A stretch of DNA of 64,000 bases from contig OZ024747.1 in assembly GCA_964016885.1 (NCBI GenBank), positions 18,228,001 through 18,292,000 of the forward strand, in the 5' to 3' direction. Source of the DNA: Eledone cirrhosa. Lineage: Eukaryota. A model generated the notes under the pieces. That model was not told the origin of the DNA. It saw only the letters and a program-made list of their open reading frames with translations, and ran no database searches. Below are positions 3,258-62,883 of the stretch, piece by piece. Numbering within the stretch: the first letter of the stretch is position 1; each line of letters opens with the position of its first letter. Made by a program: the position numbers and the translations under genes.

Positions 3258-5949
3258 TTTTTTTTTGTTTTTTTTTGTGTACATCCATTCACTCATTCAT
3301 TTACTGCCATTCTACCTTCCCGTGTCTCCCCCTCCATGCAGCTCCTTTTCGCTCTCGTTTTCTGGCACCTCCATATATATAGGTGAGTTATGCTGCCCTC
3401 TTACCAGCATTTTCCCTTCCACCCACACACACCAGCCACCCACCCCTGATGCCGCTCGGTGCCTCAGTTCCCGGCCCCATGCCCCATCCCCCACCCCTCC
3501 AAATCGACACCTGCAGCATTAACAAACGGAAAAGGGGCCGGAACTGTTTGGGGTGCGGCTGTTTCCACCACCTCACCTGCGTTGGTTTGACTCATCGAGC
3601 TTCCAATGCCCTCACAGCGTGGAGGTGCAGGAGCTGCCTCTTCCCCATGTCTTCCCAGCCACGGCCGTCTGGCACACCACCAGATGGGACAGCGAGCTTG
3701 CCTGACGCCCAAGCCTCGCTGGTCAACATCGCTCGGCTCAGGTGGCTCCGGAAGATCCCACTCAGGATCCCGAGAGTGGCACGGGTGCCGGTAGCCAATG
3801 CCCTCGCTTCCTCGATTTCGTCAAGGCCAATGTCTCGTCATTTGGGCGAGCGCCCATTCCAAGCGTCCCTAGGGACGCTACACACTCCACTCTCAGGTAC
3901 CCCCTATCCTCCACCCCCGAGGCCAGCGCCAAGCGTTTGTGTGACCAGGTAAACGCAAAGCTTATCATGGGTGATGTCTTGGCCGCAGTCAGAGTTGTTG
4001 CCTCAGAGGACACTGTCCTCCAACCCACCGAGGAGATCCTGGCTGCTCTGCGGCTCAAACACCCTGAGCCACCCACTGATCTCAGACCCATACCCCCCAC
4101 CTGCTCCTTGTGGCTACTGATGCAGATATCATGTCCGCCATAAGGTCCTTCCCAGCTAGTGTCAAGCTTGACATGAGGAATGCCTTTAACTCTTTACGCT
4201 GGGATCATCTGCTCGAGGCCTGCCTCAGCTGAGCCCCCTCTGCCTACCCGCTGGCCTACCTGTCATATGGAGCCCCGGGCATACTCCTAGCTGCTGATAC
4301 GGTCATACCCTTGGCTACTGGGGTTCAACAGGGCGACCCTTTGGGACCCCTCCTGTTTGCCCTTGGTATTGACCACATCGCCCGGAGTATCACGGCCCCT
4401 CTCAACGTTTGGTATCTGGATGATGCTACGTTGGGCGGGCCCGTACGGACGGTCTGCCAAGACTTCAATCGGTGATTCCTGCCCTGGCGGGAATCGGCCT
4501 CCAGGTCAACTCGGCCAAGTCAGAGGTGGTGAACGTCAGCCTCGATTTTGCGAGCTTTGCAGCCTCCGTCTTGGACGTGCGGTCGATTCTCCGCCAGGTT
4601 CAGGTGACCCCCAAAGAGGGGGTCACCTGAACCTGGCCATCCGCTCCACCATCAAGTCCAGGCTTCAACAGCTCCAGACTCTCACGAGCCGACTGGGCTT
4701 GATTGACAGCCACCCAGCTCTCTTTCCGCTGAGGAACTGCTTCGCCATGCTGAAGCTCCTCTATAGACTCCGCAGCGCTCCGTGCTACACCCAGACATCT
4801 CTCCTCACTGACCTCGATACTTGTATCCGAGCAGCAGCCGAGGGGATATGCAACGTCAAGTTTGACGACATAGGGTGGCAACAGGCCACTTTACCGGTCA
4901 GGTATGGCGGCCTAGGCCACTGGTCTCCGATCTCACTAGCTTTGCCGGCGTATCTTTTGTCGGTAACCTCGTGCCGCGTCCTCGTCAGCAGGGTTCTTCA
5001 AAACACAACAGAACCCTCTGTGTTCAGAGAACGTGAGGCCGTCTGTGAGACGTGGGACCGGCTGGGACTTAGCCCAGTAGACGTCCCTCCTCCTTCTCCC
5101 CTTGTTGACGTCAAGTCCCCCCAATGCACTTGGGATGCCATCCAGTGCAGCCTGGCCTCAAACAGGCTCACGCGCCAGCTCGACCAGCACCGCCTTGCTT
5201 GTTTTCGTGCGGCCTCCAAACCCCACAGTGGTGCTTGGCTCCATTCTCTGCCCTCCTTCTCCACTGGCACGCAGCTAGACAACCATAGCCTGCGAATCGG
5301 CGTTTCCCTGAGGTTCGGCCTCCGGATCTGCCAGCCACACCAATGTCGCTGCGGTTCCACTCCACCCGCTTTCCTGTCGCCACAGTGCCAGCCGCATTCC
5401 ATGCTGCCCTCAACGAGGTCATTAAGCATGGCTTGGACGCTGCAGGCTTCCCTTCCCAGCTCGAGCCGGTGAGGCTGGATCGAGGGGACGGCAAAAGGCC
5501 AGATAGCATGACCATCTTCCCGTTCCGCGGTGGCAAACCCCTCGTCTGGGATGCCACTTGCACCGACACAACCTGGTGCAGTCTGCGACTGACCCAGGTT
5601 CTGCTGCACGTCGGGCTGAGGGGGCCAAACTCCTCAAATACCGGTCGCTCTACGACAGGTTTGCGGTCGTTCCCCTGGCAGTGGAAACTTCTGGTGTCAT
5701 CGGCCCCAGGGCTACCTCCTTACTCACCACCATAGGCGCTGAGCTGGCCAGCCGCAGGTGTGAGCCCCGCGAGTTGGAGTGGCTTTTCCAGCGCGTCTCC
5801 CTTGCCGTCCTCCGGGGAAACGCCTTCTCTATTCTGTCCGCCAGGGCTGTGGGTGGGCCCCATCGCGTACCAATACATTAGTTAAATACCATTCTTTCAT
5901 CTGATACAACACAATAAAATTCGAACATAAAAAAAAAAAAAAAAAAAAA
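3258..5949 (+). mobile_element. CRE-like non-LTR retrotransposon (PHD-like finger, RT, restriction-like endonuclease), frameshifted and internally deleted
   Basis: Cys/His cluster CLGCGCFHHLTC...WRCRSC. RT motifs KLDMRNAFN (~4165), GVQQGDPLGPLLF (~4320) and WYLDD (~4410). RLE motifs [31 protein letters not shown] and FQRVSLAVLRGNA. Stop at 5881, AATAAA ~5913, poly(A) 5928-5949. GC-rich relative to flanks. Confidence 0.9.
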
Positions 5950-6851: not shown

Positions 6852-7638
<787 letters not shown>

Positions 7639-7745: not shown

Positions 7746-7951
7746 AACGAAGGAAGTGTGGTAAGGAACCAGGTGGACCATAACGCGCCAGAGTACTCAA
7801 TACTTAGGGTAGTAGAGTGGGTAATAGGAAAATGTTCAAGATCCCGACGGCAGAGCTCAAGCAGTTTCGACGGCTATTTCTTGATTGCCTGTCCAGAAAT
7901 AACCGTCGAAACGGCTTGGGCTCTGGCGTCGTGGTCTTGAACATTTTCCTA
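7746..7951 (-). mobile_element. Fold-back element family A, copy 1
   Basis: Imperfect hairpin at 7825-7951 plus ~80-nt tail. Homologous to 31969-32208, 33014-33213 and 57391-57582. (TA)n on both sides. Confidence 0.85.
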
Positions 7952-8032
7952 TATATATATATTGTATACACTCTACTAATGTATTGAGTACTTTACTTCC
8001 TGTGGTTACGCCCGATTGAACCCAGGACTCAC

Positions 8033-8385: not shown

Positions 8386-8645
8386 TGTAGATAAATCTAC
8401 CAAAAGTTTACGGTAGTGTCCAATCCGTATGAAGAACTCAATGTAATCCGGATATCATGGAAAGAAGAGATGCATTCAAAAATCACTTTCGGTGAAAGAC
8501 AAACGGAATACAGAGTCAAGATAAAATATTAAAAAAATAATGAATAAAACAATGAAACAGTTCCTTATATTAAACAGTTCCTTATATTAAACTTTTTTTG
8601 TTTAATATAAGGAACTGTTTCATTGTTTTATTCATTATTTTTTTA

Positions 8646-8652
<7 letters not shown>
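8386..8652 (-). mobile_element. Fold-back element family G, copy 1
   Basis: Near-identical inverted copy at 53142-53362. ~50-bp inverted arms at 8522-8575 and 8600-8653. (TA)n flanks. Confidence 0.8.
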
Positions 8653-8730
<78 letters not shown>

Positions 8731-8736
8731 GGCTTC

Positions 8737-8760
8737 CTGATGATTTCGCCCGAATGAAAC
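8737..8760 (+). ncRNA. Minimal hammerhead core in TA-flanked element family F (8729-8865)
   Basis: CTGATGA-T-TTC-GCCC-GAA-T-GAAAC. Homologous to 34298-34321 (-). Tail homologous to 7965-8030 and 8277-8340 (-). Confidence 0.65.
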
Positions 8761-11140
8761 AGTTCTAGTCCTGTAGAAGCCATTTCTATACTAAATATTT
8801 ATACTCTGCTATGTATTGCGTACTTTACTTACTATGGTTACCACCGATTGAACCCGGGATAAACATATATATATATACACACACACAAACATATGTTTCT
8901 CTATTTTTACGGTTTTGTCTCATTTTCTGCTTCTGTCTGTCTAGTATTTCTCTCTCTCTCTCTCTCTATTTCACTTTCATTCTCTCTCTTTACTAGTTTT
9001 TTTTATCTATCTCTACTACGTATTTTATCTGTCTTTCTGTCACCCACTCTGTTTTCACTGTTCTGACATAAAACAGGTGTTGTTCATTAAATCCACTGTG
9101 GCCTCATGAATTAATCTTATATAATTAGACCCTGGTTATTATTATTATTATTATTCATTTATTCGGTGTAATTTCATGGTGTAATATTTAGCCGCAGATG
9201 CAGTGTAATGTTGCCTACATAAATTGTCATGTTATGATAAATTGTTGTAATAGAACCTTGACTAATGTTATCATAATAGTTTTATAGTATAGGTAACTCC
9301 CTTAACTCACTTAGTTGGAAAAGGATAGCAGAAAGGGGAGTCACTATTTTAAGCTATATATAATAATAATTATGCATAGTATTCACATTAAGTCAGTATA
9401 TTAATATAAATAATATTTTGTGTGTGTGTGTGTATGTGTTTTTATTTATCTTGATGGTGTTGATTGAGCAATCCTAGATCAAAGACATTCCATCTATGAC
9501 TGTCAAGACTTTTTCCAGACATAGTGTACCTTGGATAACATTATACTGAGTGTCCATTAAAAAAAAAAGATGGTTGCATGTAATTTGAGAAGGATTTGGC
9601 TGCTATTTCTAGTAGGTTATACGAACAGTTGGGGACTACTTAATTGGCTCATAGATGCAAATGGGAGGTTTTAAAAACATCAGTTTAATCTAATGAAATT
9701 CTTATGTCGGTGGTTTTTAACCTTTTTAGCTCCATGCCCCACCACAAAACCCCGAAAGAAATTGATACTTCCCCCTCAATATAAAAACATGTTTTGATGT
9801 TAAAAAGCTATAATATAAAATTTAGTAATTTACCAAAAAGAAAAATGTTTAATCAATAATACTGCTTTAAATATACATATTGAAATGAAATTCTTTTCTT
9901 AAATGTTGAGTTTTGAAATTGCCTCCTTAAAATATTCAAATTGCTTCTCTGTTGGGTATATGCTTCACATTCATAATCACTAACATACACCATCAGTGAT
10001 GCAGTATTTCCTGTACTGGCTGTACTCTATCTGCTGTTAGCTACACTCTGACATGTGTGTTGAGAGAGTGTCTTCACTCTGATCACTGTGCAACAGTTCT
10101 GGTTGTTTTAAACAAAACTGTTCATCCTATTCGCCCAGTAAGTTGACAAACTATCAAACTTGTGAGAGGATTTTAACTCAATAAAACTTGTAATTAGAAT
10201 TATTAATGTATCTATTGAGTTCATAGTCAAATATATGTATATTGTATTGAACTTGTAACACCCAATTAAAACAATATATATTGAAAACATAATGAAATAA
10301 AATGTATAGTTCACTCCTCCATAGGTTTAGCTGGCCTCCTATGAGGTGGCACTTTGTGGAAGGTTTCTCAAGTGTCTTAATGAAAAGGTCCTATCATGAA
10401 AAGTAATGTGAAATTAAGTATCTTACTCAAGAACACAATGTGCTACCTTTGTCTATGAATTGAACTCACGACTTTATGATCATGAGTCCAATACTCTAAG
10501 TACTAAGCAAAGTAACTTTACCAAACAAGACGTAGAGAACTTACTAATACACATATACGACTGTAGTTTAAGTTAGTCTAGGCCTAATGAGGTACAAATA
10601 TGTGTGTAGTTACACAGGCAAAAAGGGAGTAGCATGAGGTCTCTTGGAAAGGTGGTACAAAATATCACATGAATAGGTGGTAGGGGTGAAGAAACCAATA
10701 CAAATAGGTAAGAAATCACCACAGGAGACACTCTATTGTCCCTTTTGATACCACATCACTTGAAACTACCTTGCAACTATGATACAAAACTGCTCATTTT
10801 AAAATGTTTATCATGACTCATACACTGTTCATTTTCCTGACAATTGTACATTATTCTATGTCTTATACATGCACCTTTGATGAGTTGTATTGCACCTGAG
10901 AGCTGTACACAATAATTTCATTATATATATCCTGATATTAAATCCTGCTATCAGGTGATGTTCTAAATATCAGTTTACTAATGAAAAACTTTATTTTATT
11001 AAATTCTTCCAAATATTTGATTATTTTTTAAATGAATTGAAACACATAGGGAGTGTATTCTATCAAAATAGGGTAATGAAAGGGGTTAAACAAGCAAGAG
11101 GATTTTTACTCAGTAATACAAACTAATGAAACATTTTTCT

Positions 11141-27608: not shown

Positions 27609-29685
27609 AGCCCACCCTTTCGTTGCCAAATTTCTAATACAACTAACTTACCCATTATTAAGCTGCAGTTTGTAATGTAACAAAGGTGCTTACATATAAT
27701 TTTGATGGAAGGTTTTTAGATAAATATAAACTTTAAAATAAACTGTTTTGTATCATAGAACATAGGGTGGTTTCAGGGTGTTTGGTATCAAAAGGGTTAA
27801 GTTGGTATTTGAAACATAAACAATATAAAATAGAACTAAGGGTGATTTCAAACAGTCTGGTATTCGGGGTTAATCTGACAAAATTCTTTAATTGATGGTT
27901 TTCAGTTCAATTAGTCACCTAGTCACTAATCATTTTACTTCAAATTCTAAGAGGACATACCACAGCAATGAAGTGTCATTCCTGCTAGTAGTGAGTCTTC
28001 AAGACTAGTCAAGCATGCACTAATATACAACTTGTATGGAACATTTTTCTCACTGCTTTGCCAAGTACTCTCATTCATTTTAATTTAAGTACAAAACAGC
28101 ACAATGATTTCATCACATAAAAAAATTCAAGTCTTTAGTTTATTACAAATTTTTACAATGATCTGTTCACTAGTAAACATACTATAAACATTTGAATTAA
28201 CAAGCTCGATTTTAGATATTTTCTGCTAAATTATTACAAGATGTTAAGAGTTAATTAATAAAAATGGTGATTATGAATCAATGAGTACATTTCTTTTTGG
28301 TTGTTTTAGAACCTGCCAGAATTCTTTTAAGCTTTTGATATAAGTGGGTTGGTGGCCCCAAAAGTTTGAAAACCTCTGGTGTAGTAGGTGTGTTTTATTG
28401 TCTCACCAACACTAATGAGGTTGTCATGTCTTTGACGCTACTGAAGAGTCCTATCAACCCTTTTTTTTGGCATCGTTTCTACAGCTGGATGTCCAATGTG
28501 TTATTCCATTTTAAAGATATGTTTTGAAGTTGTTTGGTTGCTATTTCTAGCAGACCAATCCATTGGCTCATTAGACCTGTCTTGTTGGTAAGGTAAAGGA
28601 ATAGATGTCAGGTTTAATGATATTAAACAGAAACTAAGCTATCTACAATAAACTAGATCTGCTAGTGGCTGTTCATTCATAATGTTCATATCCCCGATAA
28701 AGGTGTGTGTATGTTTGCACAAGTGTGTATGTATGAGTGTGTGTTTCTGTACACGTGTGTGTGTGCTCACTGAAAATTGAATGGTTGGTGTACACAAGCA
28801 CACACATGTCTGTGTGTGAATGAATGTATATTTATATGTGTAGGTGTGTATGAATGTATATTTATATATATGTGTGTGTATAATGCATTAGTGTATTTTG
28901 TGTGTATGAGTCTGTAAATATATGTATATACATATGTATGTATGCATGTATGTATGTGTATATGTAATTCAGCTTATCAATAAATACAGTACTAACATAA
29001 CTTTAGCTCTGTGTTGTTGAAAATTAACTCTTTCTCTTTTCTTCAGATATTTTTCTCTTATAACAGGATAAAGGGATTGTCAATCTCTCCCCTGAGATTT
29101 TGGGTGTTCTTTAGCCATAGGTCAGCTCTGACTAATTGATCTTTTCTCAAAAAAGTGGTAGTGCTGGTACTACAATAAAATGCACCCAGTACATTTTCTA
29201 AAGTAAGTAGTATTAGGAAGGGCATCCAGCCATAGAAACATGCCAAAATGTGACATAAAATGTCTTCTCTAGTCAACCCAGTACTGTTAGTTACCCAGAG
29301 GAATTTGTGTACCAGTTGTTTTTTTTTGGGGGGGAGGGGGGGGGGGGGCTTTTTTGCTTGTGAGGAGTCTGATCAAGGCACTTTTCTATTATATCTCTTG
29401 TAATCAACGTACCTTTAGTCACCTTTACATTCTCACCAGACTGATCTTTCATTGTGCTAATGTTAATGCTGGCAGACTTGAATTTTTGCACCTGGCAGGA
29501 AGAGGAATGTGTGTGTGTATATATATATATACACATACACAGACTCACACACACACACACATTCACAAAATGGCTGACTAAACATATACATGCATTCCTT
29601 CCATAAAAAAAAGTACTGTTTCTTCTTTTTACTCTCATCTATCTTTCTATTTCTTCTTTTGTCTCTTATTCTGTTAGTCTATTTG

Positions 29686-29710
29686 CTGATGAAGTACTAA
29701 CATCCAAAAC
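29686..29710 (+). ncRNA. Degenerate minimal hammerhead core (Penelope pLTR-type)
   Basis: CTGATGA-AGTACTAACATCC-AAAACGTT. Homologous, including the downstream ctatttcaagYgttaa, to 56510-56537. Confidence 0.45.
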
Positions 29711-29793
29711 GTTCAGATTCTTTTCCTTCTATTTCAAGTGTTAAACTAATATATATCATCATTGTACACTGTCATTCAAGATAATTATTTTGT

Positions 29794-29843
29794 CTGACGA
29801 ATGAGTTAGATGTTTCTGTAAGAATCATCTAGTTTCTCGAAAC
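29794..29843 (+). ncRNA. Hammerhead core with extended stem II (family E, intact form; element to ~29951)
   Basis: CTGACGA-..GAG.TAGATG.TTCT gta AGAA.CATCTA..CTC-GAAAC. The downstream ~110 nt are homologous to 55084-55195. Confidence 0.7.
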
Positions 29844-29989
29844 CTTCGGTAATGGAATAATTATATTGTATTGTTTATTATGTAATTAAATAGCTCTGTA
29901 CTATACATAGAGCACTCTTCTTTTCTTTACCTTTTCTATGGAAATACTTAACACACACACTCATATATATATATATATATATATATATC

Positions 29990-31920: not shown

Positions 31921-31968
<48 letters not shown>

Positions 31969-31972
<4 letters not shown>

Positions 31973-32208
31973 AACAAGTAAGACCCCGACGGCTGAGCTC
32001 AAGCCGTTTCGGCGGCTAATTCTGGACTGAATGAAAATTAATTGAAAATTTATGAATAAATTTTCATTCAGTCCAGAATTAGCCGTCGAAACGGCTTGAG
32101 CTCAGCCGTCGGGGTCTTACTTGTTCCTATTACCCACTCTACTACCCTAAGTATTGAGTACTTTGGTGCGTTATCGTCCACCTGGTTCCTTACCACATTT
32201 CCTTCGTT
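31969..32208 (+). mobile_element. Fold-back element family A, copy 3
   Basis: Arms 31969-32039 and 32059-32129 (one mismatch), GAAAC in the right arm, ~80-nt tail, (TA)n on both sides. Confidence 0.9.
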
Positions 32209-32978: not shown

Positions 32979-33013
<35 letters not shown>

Positions 33014-33017
<4 letters not shown>

Positions 33018-33211
33018 AACCAGTAAGACCCCGACAGCTGAGCTCAAGCCGTTTCGACGGCTAATTCTGGACTAAGTCCAGAATTAGCCGTCGAAACGGC
33101 TTGAGCTCAGCTGTCGGGGTCTTACTGGTTCCTATTACCCACTCTACTACCTCAAGTATTGAGTACTTTGGTGCGTTATGGTCCACCTGGTTCCTTACCA
33201 CATTTCCTTCG

Positions 33212-33213
<2 letters not shown>
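33014..33213 (+). mobile_element. Fold-back element family A, copy 4
   Basis: Perfect 60-bp arms 33014-33073 and 33075-33134 with a 1-nt spacer. Tail to 33213. (TA)n on both sides. Confidence 0.9.
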
Positions 33214-34278: not shown

Positions 34279-34297
34279 AGTATACAGGACTAGAACT

Positions 34298-34321
34298 GTT
34301 TCATTCGCATGAAATCATCAG
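34298..34321 (-). ncRNA. Minimal hammerhead core, family F (inverted-repeat element 34283-34460)
   Basis: Minus strand CTGATGA-TTTC-ATGC-GAAT-GAAAC-AGTTCTAGTCCTGTA. The plus strand repeats GAATGAAACAGTTCTAGTCCTGTA at ~34334-34357. Confidence 0.65.
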
Positions 34322-34470
34322 ATGGTTTAATATGAATGAAACAGTTCTAGTCCTGTAGAAGTCATTTCTATATAAAATAAAAAATGCTTATACTCTACCA
34401 ATATACTGAGTTCCTTTTTTTTTATCTGTGGTTAATCCCCCCCCCCAACCCAGCTTGTAAATCTACATAT

Positions 34471-50739: not shown

Positions 50740-50817
50740 TAGGGTGTTCCAAAAAAATGTATACATACTCTGATCAGAATGCTGTTGAAGTGTGTATACA
50801 TTTTTTGGGACACCCTG
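50740..50817. mobile_element. Tiny Tc1/mariner-like MITE
   Basis: ~29-bp TIRs agggtgttccaaaaaaatgtatacatact and agtgtgtatacattttttgggacaccctg. Confidence 0.7.
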
Positions 50818-54960: not shown

Positions 54961-54996
54961 CTTGAGCAAGACATATATATATATATATATATATAT

Positions 54997-55195
54997 ATTA
55001 TGTAATAAACAACACAACATAATTATTCCATTACTCAAGGTTTCACGAATTCAGACGCTTCTCTTAGAATCGTCTGACTTCGTGAAACCTTGAGTAATGG
55101 AATAATTATGTTGTGTTGTTTATTACATAATTAAATAGCTGTGTACTATACATAGAGCACTCTCCTTTCCTTTACCTTTTCCACAGAAATACTTA
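54997..55195 (+). mobile_element. Fold-back form of hammerhead family E
   Basis: Perfect 53-bp arms 54997-55049 and 55079-55131 around an imperfect stem II homologous to 29801-29838. GAAAC at 55084. No CTGANGA. Confidence 0.85.
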
Positions 55196-56509
55196 ACACA
55201 CACACACACACACATATATATTTATATATATATATATTTCCCTGTAAATTAATGTAAATATACCAAGAAACAGACACCTTTTGTTGGTAAATTTTTCTGT
55301 GTATTTATGAGTGCATATGTAGTTATATGCATGAGTGGTTGTGTGTATGTAGTTATAAATGTGTGTGTATGTGGTTATAAATGTGTGTGTATGTGGTTAT
55401 AAATGTGCGTGTATTTAGTTATGAATGTGTGTATGTAGCTATGAATGTGTGTATGTAGTTATAAATGTGTGTGTATTTAGTTATGAATGTGTGTGTATGT
55501 AGCTATGAATGTGTGTATGTAGTTATAAATGTGTGTGTATGTAGTTATAATTGTTTGTGAATATAGTTATGAATGTGTATATGTGTATGTACATACATAT
55601 ACAAAGAAAATGTATATGTATATAAGAATTTTAAATTCTCTAAGCAAGGAATTTCTTGTTAATAGCATTTGCTTTTCTTTGAAATGATTTCTATTTTCTC
55701 CTAACCCATTATCACACCTACATATCAGTTCAATCCTTACTCTTTCCTCCTCAGCCTTAAATATACCTTATTTTTCAACAGACACCGAATACTTAACTAA
55801 TTAATGACAAAACAGAAAGGATTGTTGCGGGATCTCTTCCGATGATCATTGCCTGATTACTAACTATAACCATTCAGCTCACTTACATTTAAACACACCT
55901 CAGATATACACACCCTGAATGTAATCTGTTATGTTGTTTAGATATTATAAAGACTTATGACGAAACAGGAGGTAAAAAATAGTGGGTGCAGCTTGATTTG
56001 TATTGTGTAACTTCTACAGTGTTTGTTTATATAAATATTTAGCTAGTGATGATGATGATGATGATGATGTTGAATTAATGTTTAAGCCTTTACCATTTAC
56101 ATTATTCTATATATACTATTGTATTTTCATGGTAAAGTCTTTACCTCACATAGAATCTCACATGATATCGAATCTATGAGATTTTGATATTATTTATTTT
56201 GAGAACAATACCTTAACATCAGTATGAGTGGCCAGTTATGGCCAGTTTGAACAGAAAGAGGTGAGAGAAATCTGGCTGGATATGACCGGTTTAAATGCTA
56301 AAGGGTTAACAAGTGAAACTGTATATGTGAGGGAGTTTGTTTTTTTCCATCTTCCTTGCTCAGACGAATCAAAGAAAGGAAAAAAAGAAAAACAGACCCT
56401 AAAATATATTTTCCGTGCTATTTCCAACTTCACCTTTACTCTATATCCACTGTTTTGTATAGAACCTTACTTCCTTTTCCTAATGTATATATATATATCA
56501 TTCTTTCTT

Positions 56510-56537
56510 CTGATGAAGGACTAGCGTCTGAAATGTT
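56510..56537 (+). ncRNA. Minimal hammerhead core (CpG-decayed)
   Basis: CTGATGA-A-GGAC-TAGC-GTCT-GAAATGTT, consistent with an ancestral GTCC-GAAACGTT. Confidence 0.6.
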
Positions 56538-56904
56538 AAGACCCTCTTCCTGCTATTTCAAGCGTTAACCTAATATATTCCTGCCATATACTGTACCGAT
56601 TGTGTTGTTATTTCTGTTTACCTTTTACACACACACACACATACACACACACACACACATACACACACAGCAGGTGTGTTGTTCGAATTCAGCAGAGGGG
56701 TACCATCACAATCTTTCTTATATTTAGCTCATATATAAATATATCATTTTAGGGCATCCGGCCATAGAATCCACATGAAATATAGACCATATGAACAAGA
56801 TGAGGACACGCTGACCTATCTGGTCTCAGACCATGGTAACCTATCCAACCCATACCAGCATGGAAAGTGGACATAAAATGATGTTAAAATCTTAATCATA
56901 TATT

Positions 56905-57390: not shown

Positions 57391-57582
57391 ATATGAAAAG
57401 ATTCAGCACCCCAACGGCTGAGCTCCGGCTGTTCGACAGCTAGTTCGGATCTAGCTGTCGAAACGGACGGAGCTCAGCCGTCGGGGTCCTGAATCTTTTC
57501 ATATTACCCACTCTATTACCGCAAGTATCAAATACTCTTGTGCATTATGGTCCACCTGGTACCTTACCACGCTCTCTTTGTT
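57391..57582 (+). mobile_element. Fold-back element family A, copy 5 (diverged)
   Basis: Hairpin 57391-57504 with inner gacagctag-ttcggat-ctagctgtc-GAAAC. Family A tail. TA flanks. Confidence 0.85.
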
Positions 57583-62744: not shown

Positions 62745-62793
62745 CTCTCTGCTCTCTCAGTTCAAATTTCACTATTTTGATGTATATATATAT

Positions 62794-62831
<38 letters not shown>

Positions 62832-62883
62832 GATATATATATATACATCAAAATAGTGAAATTTGAACTGAGAGAGCAGAGAG
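62745..62883. repeat. Local inverted duplication around an (ATC)n spacer
   Basis: ctctctgctctctcagttcaaatttcactattttgatg(ta)n-tca is mirrored after (atc)n. Confidence 0.9.

Follow-up and report, generated by a model that had tools for sequence, protein, structure and literature searches.

In LINE-1 twin priming, priming by the second target end takes place internally on the RNA, and the resulting two cDNAs are joined head to head. The insertion units of EN+ Penelope-like elements are described as carrying an inverted truncated copy, a one-sided tail and a hammerhead within their pseudo-LTR (PMC8557442, PMC6765202), and a further account already proposes self-priming for Penelope elements from palindromic junctions (PMC3846280). 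In case of the Poseidon element of the green anole, both strands are cleaved and extended from two internal starts that bound the tail, with the use of uncleaved RNA and by a predicted dimer (PMC11167929).

The family investigated in this study is represented by a folded copy at positions 54997–55195 of the analysed 64-kb stretch of DNA (the window). As described in PMC8557442 and PMC3846280, the EN+ Penelope-like insertion unit shares with our family a 5'-truncated copy next to an inverted truncated copy, a one-sided tail, a pseudo-LTR hammerhead, a microsatellite target and palindromic junctions, whereas it differs in its tail of 30–40 nt compared to about 60–65 nt found here, in the small size of most of our units, which are shorter than 300 nt and devoid of any ORF, and in the long 39-nt stem II region of our hammerhead. 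As a structure, the hairpin corresponds to the usual insertion unit of Penelope elements and is already known; what is new is a map of junctions, which rejects a fold-back specific to stem II and favours two separately primed cDNAs.

The folded copy, with about 200 bases, and a second copy of the family in the window contain the following parts, in which positions relative to the element are counted from the predicted hammerhead cut site, with the core located at −59 to −53 and the 39-nt stem II region at −52 to −14:

54973–54996, no strand: (AT)n target tract flanking the insertion on the left, with no readable target-site duplication
54997–55049, minus strand: inverted arm, element +35 back to −18 from the cut site, its outer end coinciding with the inner end site of the family
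55045–55049, plus strand: 5-nt junction overlap ACGAA, equivalent to the native stem II base, with a join ambiguity of −5 to 0
55045–55083, plus strand: native hammerhead stem II in sense orientation with its own mismatches, as defined by pairing
55084–55096, plus strand: GAAAC, 3-bp stem III and GTA cleavage triplet with a predicted cut after 55096, lacking both CTGANGA and stem I's 5' strand
55097–55131, plus strand: 3' strand of stem I and on to the inner end site, from profile alignment and the map of ends
55132–55197, plus strand: one-sided tail of about 65 nt between inner and outer end site; full elements continue into the ORF
55196–55238, no strand: (AC)n(AT)n tract flanking the insertion on the right, read from the sequence
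29781–29952, plus strand: second copy of the family, 5'-truncated, sense only and of another subfamily, with core 29794–29800, stem II 29801–29838, GAAAC 29839–29843, predicted cut after 29851 and tail to 29952

In the folded copy, residues 54997–55049 pair with 55079–55131 at 53 of 53 positions around a palindrome centre at 55064, and past these perfect pairs the inner stem proceeds with a mismatch, six pairs, another mismatch, four pairs and a short loop. The original prediction had described a perfect 53-bp inverted arm in place of the sequence 5' of stem II and an inner stem that keeps its native mismatches, and our pairing map reproduces both features, except that five of the 53 pairs, the innermost ones (ACGAA at 55045–55049 with TTCGT at 55079–55083), constitute the base of native stem II, which leaves 48 new pairs. 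Stem II, the GAAAC at 55084–55088 and the tail were equally found as described, and inspection of 54997–55195 revealed no CTGANGA. Both arms are identical and have a rare variant at +14 in common, and identical arms were found in only 3 of 64 other loci of the family. A short-read contig of run X1 (70 nt, depth 13.4), which possibly originates from the assembly's own sample, spans the join from 55020 to 55089 with zero mismatches, and RAD-seq reads from a different individual do not extend over it. The folded copy is a real and ordinary Penelope-like insertion unit, constituting a short head-to-head insertion of a decayed element. From this copy alone, fold-back in cis and annealing in trans are indistinguishable, since both yield identical sequence.

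The complete core reported for the second copy is present, with CTGACGA at 29794–29800, GAAAC at 29839–29843 and a tail that extends to 29952. This copy starts near 29775–29781 according to profile alignment, and between stem II and the end of the tail it is identical to the folded copy in 125 of 153 columns, which, together with the assignment to different subfamilies, defines it as a homologue and not as the parent. The change from ATG/CAT to ACG/CGT in stem II, which had been put forward as compensatory, is real, but it is weak evidence by itself since both changes are of the CpG-decay type, and covariation over 40 copies is more informative. In these copies, 83.8% of cells in the three-helix hammerhead are paired and 40 double changes are observed compared to 25 in shuffled controls, although the copies were picked for an intact core and related sequences can exceed such shuffles. 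The predicted assignment to type I hammerheads, which is based on core motifs, constrained folding (−13.6 kcal/mol compared to −17.6 kcal/mol for the minimum free energy structure) and the pairing in the 40 copies, applies to the copy at 29794 and not to the one at 54997. No hammerhead was contained among the nine Rfam matches up to an E-value of 10 at 29660–29960, and scans of the whole window with Rfam and for repeats were dominated by microsatellites.

Searches of the 3.0-Gb genome with the tail yielded 2,296 and 2,061 first-look candidate copies, and a 27-nt tail motif has 536 exact matches in the genome compared to 0 for a control. Walking upstream from the pseudo-LTR, we traversed an untranslated region that is AT-rich and arrived at a locus whose reverse transcriptase (RT) fragment is flanked by inverted and sense pseudo-LTRs. 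The family's pseudo-LTR is located within 1.5 kb in 14 of 30 loci matching this fragment, and in one of the loci (L235) pseudo-LTR, tail and the start of the ORF are contiguous and unbroken. Translations of 30 decayed loci contain RT motifs, with RWK and DKT-like sequences found in 8 of 30 each and CxCX5C and CxxC..E in 14 of 30 each; the labels of RT and endonuclease motifs follow PMC8557442 in part, and the CxH pattern used in the count is loose and includes false matches. All ORFs found are broken, no Pfam family was matched in three ORF fragments, and the 3' UTR encompasses about 1.3 kb or more. Judged by sequence, the pseudo-LTR defining the family belongs to a decayed EN+ Penelope-like element with a linked ORF that appears to encode an RT together with a GIY-YIG-type endonuclease at the C terminus. 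Its motifs (RWK, DKT, CxCX5C, CxxC/CxH) and the targeting of (TA)n, into which family copies are inserted, would place it close to the Hydra clade, a candidate placement made by motifs only. As described, this clade shares with our family RWK, DKT, the CxCX5C linker, CxxC and CxH around conserved E and N residues, a hammerhead and (TA)n targets, whereas the ORFs found here are all broken and a 3' UTR of at least about 1.3 kb makes the element exceed the size of 'generally <3 kb' (PMC8557442). The original reading of a hammerhead pseudo-LTR from a Penelope-like element, inserted in (TA)n and accompanied by an inverted arm on its 5' side, was correct, with the arm originating from the same source. 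Non-LTR retrozymes, as described in bioRxiv 10.64898/2026.07.22.740005, are likewise short non-coding hammerhead units derived from Penelope pseudo-LTRs, but form tandem head-to-tail arrays; this identity was ruled out for our family, whose copies are dispersed as single or inverted units and not as tandem hammerhead monomers. A 28-bp minisatellite of more than 3 kb (G000:C22:31769549–31772898) has apparently expanded from the 3' untranslated region of the element.

For the map of junctions, the sense 5' end and the inverted arm of each copy were located by profile alignment in two samples picked blind to the join, one (U) made up of 99 loci among the first 100 in the list of 536 exact tail matches and the other (T) 60 further loci from BLAST searches with the tail. 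The two window copies (L001 at 54997 and L031 at 29794) were excluded from frequencies, and 13 duplicate loci, five tail-less loci that all came from a junction-aimed set, spurious microsatellite inversions and 13 borderline calls were dropped. An inverted 5'-truncated neighbour, which is a trait of EN+ Penelope-like elements, was found in 51 of 99 copies in U and in 41 of 60 in T, together 92 of 159. The outer end of the inverted arm is located at +28 to +41, defining the inner end site, in 83 of these 92 copies, whereas the sense arm ends around +99 at the outer site. The tail is one-sided, another trait of EN+ elements, and present on both arms in only 2 of 92. Among 30 long copies chosen by their upstream sequence, about 16 end at the inner and about nine at the outer site. 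Since 13 of 14 long inner-ended single arms that were checked have no partner on the opposite strand within 8 kb, with one showing a tail-only piece 7 kb off, the inner site behaves as an independent start. Tail-only insertions, which start at +20 to +45 and thus at the inner site, account for 13 of 48 non-inverted copies in the unbiased set. Loci where such insertions were noted are L096, L099, L100, L122, L140, L143, L179 and L181.

In 40 of 92 copies, the inverted arm extends beyond the 5' end of the sense arm by more than 8 nt, the reverse being the case in 24, and in 10 of the 51 inverted copies in U the sense arm starts only at +34 to +57 and consequently holds no template for the inverted arm. 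Between the paired arms of the loci, 254 derived alleles are shared, and arms differ at 14% of polymorphic columns, compared to 46% for other copies (a sum that includes the misaligned L149, which was left out of the set used for ends and divergence). The comparison of arm-to-arm with copy-to-copy identity proposed earlier gave divergences of 8.1% and 15%, respectively, over 64 loci, as expected for arms sharing a source, and two different source elements as a rule are ruled out by shared subfamily variants. The arms of tight palindromes are no younger than those of asymmetric copies (7.1% compared to 7.3% divergence, p = 0.87), which counts against a gradual later deletion. Homogenisation of arms in tight palindromes is ruled out since spacer length is unrelated to arm divergence, and one-sided deletion from a common fold point was rejected with a table of short/short combinations that is non-significant (p = 0.21). 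The overlap at the junction amounts to 1.18 nt compared to 0.86 nt by chance (p = 0.02), and symmetric joins are enriched, with 28 of 92 falling within 8 nt compared to 15.5 by permutation (p = 0.0004).

Self-priming at stem II, as general mechanism for the generation of hairpins, is not reflected in these data. Once tail copies were collected and palindrome centres mapped relative to the ribozyme, as had been suggested, joins were not concentrated on stem II, which is crossed in 0 of 92 tail-selected inverted copies compared to 0.5 expected by permutation, or in 1 of 93 if the borderline L111 is counted (95% upper bounds of 3% and 5%, respectively). The cDNA hairpin of stem II is predicted to be stable (−14.6 kcal/mol), with pairing probabilities of the cDNA end predicted to exceed 0.8 at −52, −44 and −34, but none of nine inverted copies whose sense arm ends at −53 to −34, within the 5' strand or the loop of stem II, has used the native partner. 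Of 182 5' ends between −110 and −10, 97 cluster at −81 to −60 and 42 are found in stem II and its surroundings. A search directed at the join of the folded copy, in which 40 of 681 candidates were scored, retrieved forward stem II joins in L064, L066 and L074 by script and in L075, L261 and L262 by eye. In mirror-image joins, found in L063 and L065 and as the borderline case L111, the loop resides in the inverted arm, an arrangement not obtainable from one folding cDNA. Stem II thus rarely serves as junction homology in both orientations, with a total of about ten such joins, mostly from the targeted search, three of them mirror images including L111. The proposed fold is therefore correct in that the join at 54997 uses stem II pairing, but this copy is an exception in its family. 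Equally, the loss of ribozyme function ascribed to such insertions fits the folded copy, which is devoid of CTGANGA, and is not a rule, since an intact core motif is retained on one strand in 43 of 92 copies.

A second Penelope family in the same genome, which is younger, has 21,375 exact tail matches. Its joins, which in most cases form near-perfect palindromes, cluster 35–45 nt upstream of the putative cut, with 14 of 34 symmetric within 2 nt compared to 5.9 expected, in a set that includes one duplicate and a few mis-split joins. Inverted arms were found in 22 of 30 loci (20 by script, 2 by eye), none of which reaches the 5' strand of the putative stem II.

With a probability of about 0.6, we interpret the hairpin as a short insertion of a Penelope-like pseudo-LTR into (TA)n that was generated by two cDNAs, each primed separately at one of two fixed start sites of a single RNA, with subsequent head-to-head joining. 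This interpretation builds on an element family with two fixed 3' ends, same-source arms, variable joins and 5' ends at −81 to −60, to which it would add a transcript start near −72 as well as nicking, priming and the displacement of strands. In such a process, the endonuclease of the element would nick both target strands, with one reverse transcriptase starting at the outer site to produce the sense arm with its tail and another at the inner site to produce the inverted arm. Each would read across the uncleaved ribozyme and either dissociate or arrive at the 5' end of the RNA at around −72, which probably corresponds to a transcript start shortly upstream of the core. Both cDNA 3' ends would then anneal by 0–8 nt of complementarity and gaps would be filled, with the complementarity used in the folded copy happening to be the base of stem II. 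This reading is suggested by the fixed inner site, which also ends solo arms, by inverted arms that are longer than their sense counterparts, by the common source of both and by the short homology at the joins. Compared to LINE-1 twin priming, the head-to-head cDNAs are shared, and a non-overlapping pattern is found in 10 of 51 copies, but the internal site is fixed in our case and most arm pairs overlap, leading to palindromes. With Poseidon, the family has in common two internal starts that bound the tail, an AC-rich outer start, AT-rich targets and copying through an uncleaved hammerhead, although inverted arms are not discussed in that study and our start sites are read from genomic ends only (PMC11167929). 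It is about an even matter whether the inverted-arm-plus-tail signature of Penelope elements results from a protein dimer that performs twin priming at two fixed start sites of a single RNA, where each cDNA would run to the end of a transcript whose start is located just upstream of the hammerhead and ribozyme stems would act as occasional glue only.

The symmetric joins, which are twofold enriched in both families, speak against two primers and would fit them only if both cDNAs run off the same RNA end, whereas they are directly predicted if a single cDNA from the outer site snaps back onto its own 3' end at whatever point it stopped, in most cases upstream of the core, with extension then proceeding to the inner site and central trimming or deletion accounting for asymmetric joins. 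The common source of the arms and the self-priming proposed from junction palindromes in PMC3846280 agree with this alternative, but extension would have to stop exactly at the site that also ends solo insertions, many inverted arms contain sequence missing from the sense arm or have no template in it (40 of 92 and 10 of 51), and tight and loose joins are equally diverged. We consider it rather unlikely as general origin, while the excess of symmetric joins suggests that it may apply to a subset of copies. Conversely, solo inner-ended arms could have lost their partner, asymmetric joins could have arisen by deletion of the palindrome centre right after insertion, and two polymerases copying the same stretch of RNA would need strand displacement.

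An origin of the family's hairpins by self-priming specifically at the folded stem II is very improbable despite the location of the join at 54997, the stability of the hairpin and the six further forward joins, which came from a search aimed at them, since the tail-selected copies, those stopped within stem II, the mirror forms and the second family all argue against it, though it may hold for the copy at 54997 itself. For this copy, the identical arms with their rare variant at +14, unusual for a family with an average divergence of about 7% and identity in only 3 of 64 other loci, could also have arisen after insertion, if replication of an ordinary copy switched templates at its stem II inverted repeat. 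However, the outer end at +35, which coincides with the fixed end site shared by 83 of 92 inverted arms, abuts (TA)n, a boundary that a replication accident would ignore, making such an event improbable. A fold-back artefact of assembly or library, a concern raised earlier, might be suspected from perfect arms adjoining a microsatellite and from the fact that no single record spans the whole insertion, but it is scarcely credible in light of the depth-13 contig bridging the join without mismatch, the imperfect inner stem and a layout common to 92 of 159 copies, whose arms usually differ by about 7–8%.

In searches of the open literature, we did not find a two-primer reading for Penelope elements, and supplements of the papers cited here may list the family or its joins. 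Such a reading makes clear predictions for an existing in-vitro system and bears on how telomerase-related elements complete integration. If true, twin priming by a dimer would tie start sites defined in vitro to the long-unexplained inverted pseudo-LTR, which thousands of genomic joins would map.

Hammerhead-like families are often neighbours within shared (TA)n tracts. The second family, with the same layout, a sharp inner end and a tail of about 78 nt, is found in the window at 31968–32208, 33013–33212, 57391–57580 and 7748–7952, and its long copies elsewhere (L162:4070–4170; L080) contain an atypical core CTGAGAAG in place of CTGANGA, a long stem II loop and a 5–6 bp stem III. The locus L162, considered as full-length copy of the first family, was ruled out since it is a 2-kb palindrome whose ORF end belongs to a different family; at L162:290–4400 both 2-kb arms contain this second-family ORF end, a microsatellite and a first-family unit, as if one element had carried another. 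A third family, whose hammerhead core is short (8737 and, on the minus strand, 34321) and which includes fold-back forms, is located at 8737–8865, 34283–34357 and 8521–8654, and a fourth hammerhead-like repeat at 29686–29775 and 56510–56620, with the copy at 29794 adjoining its decayed remnant. Palindromes or inverted repeats of unrelated sequence are found at 62745–62883, 50741–50816, 4593–4637 and 6947–7589 of the window.
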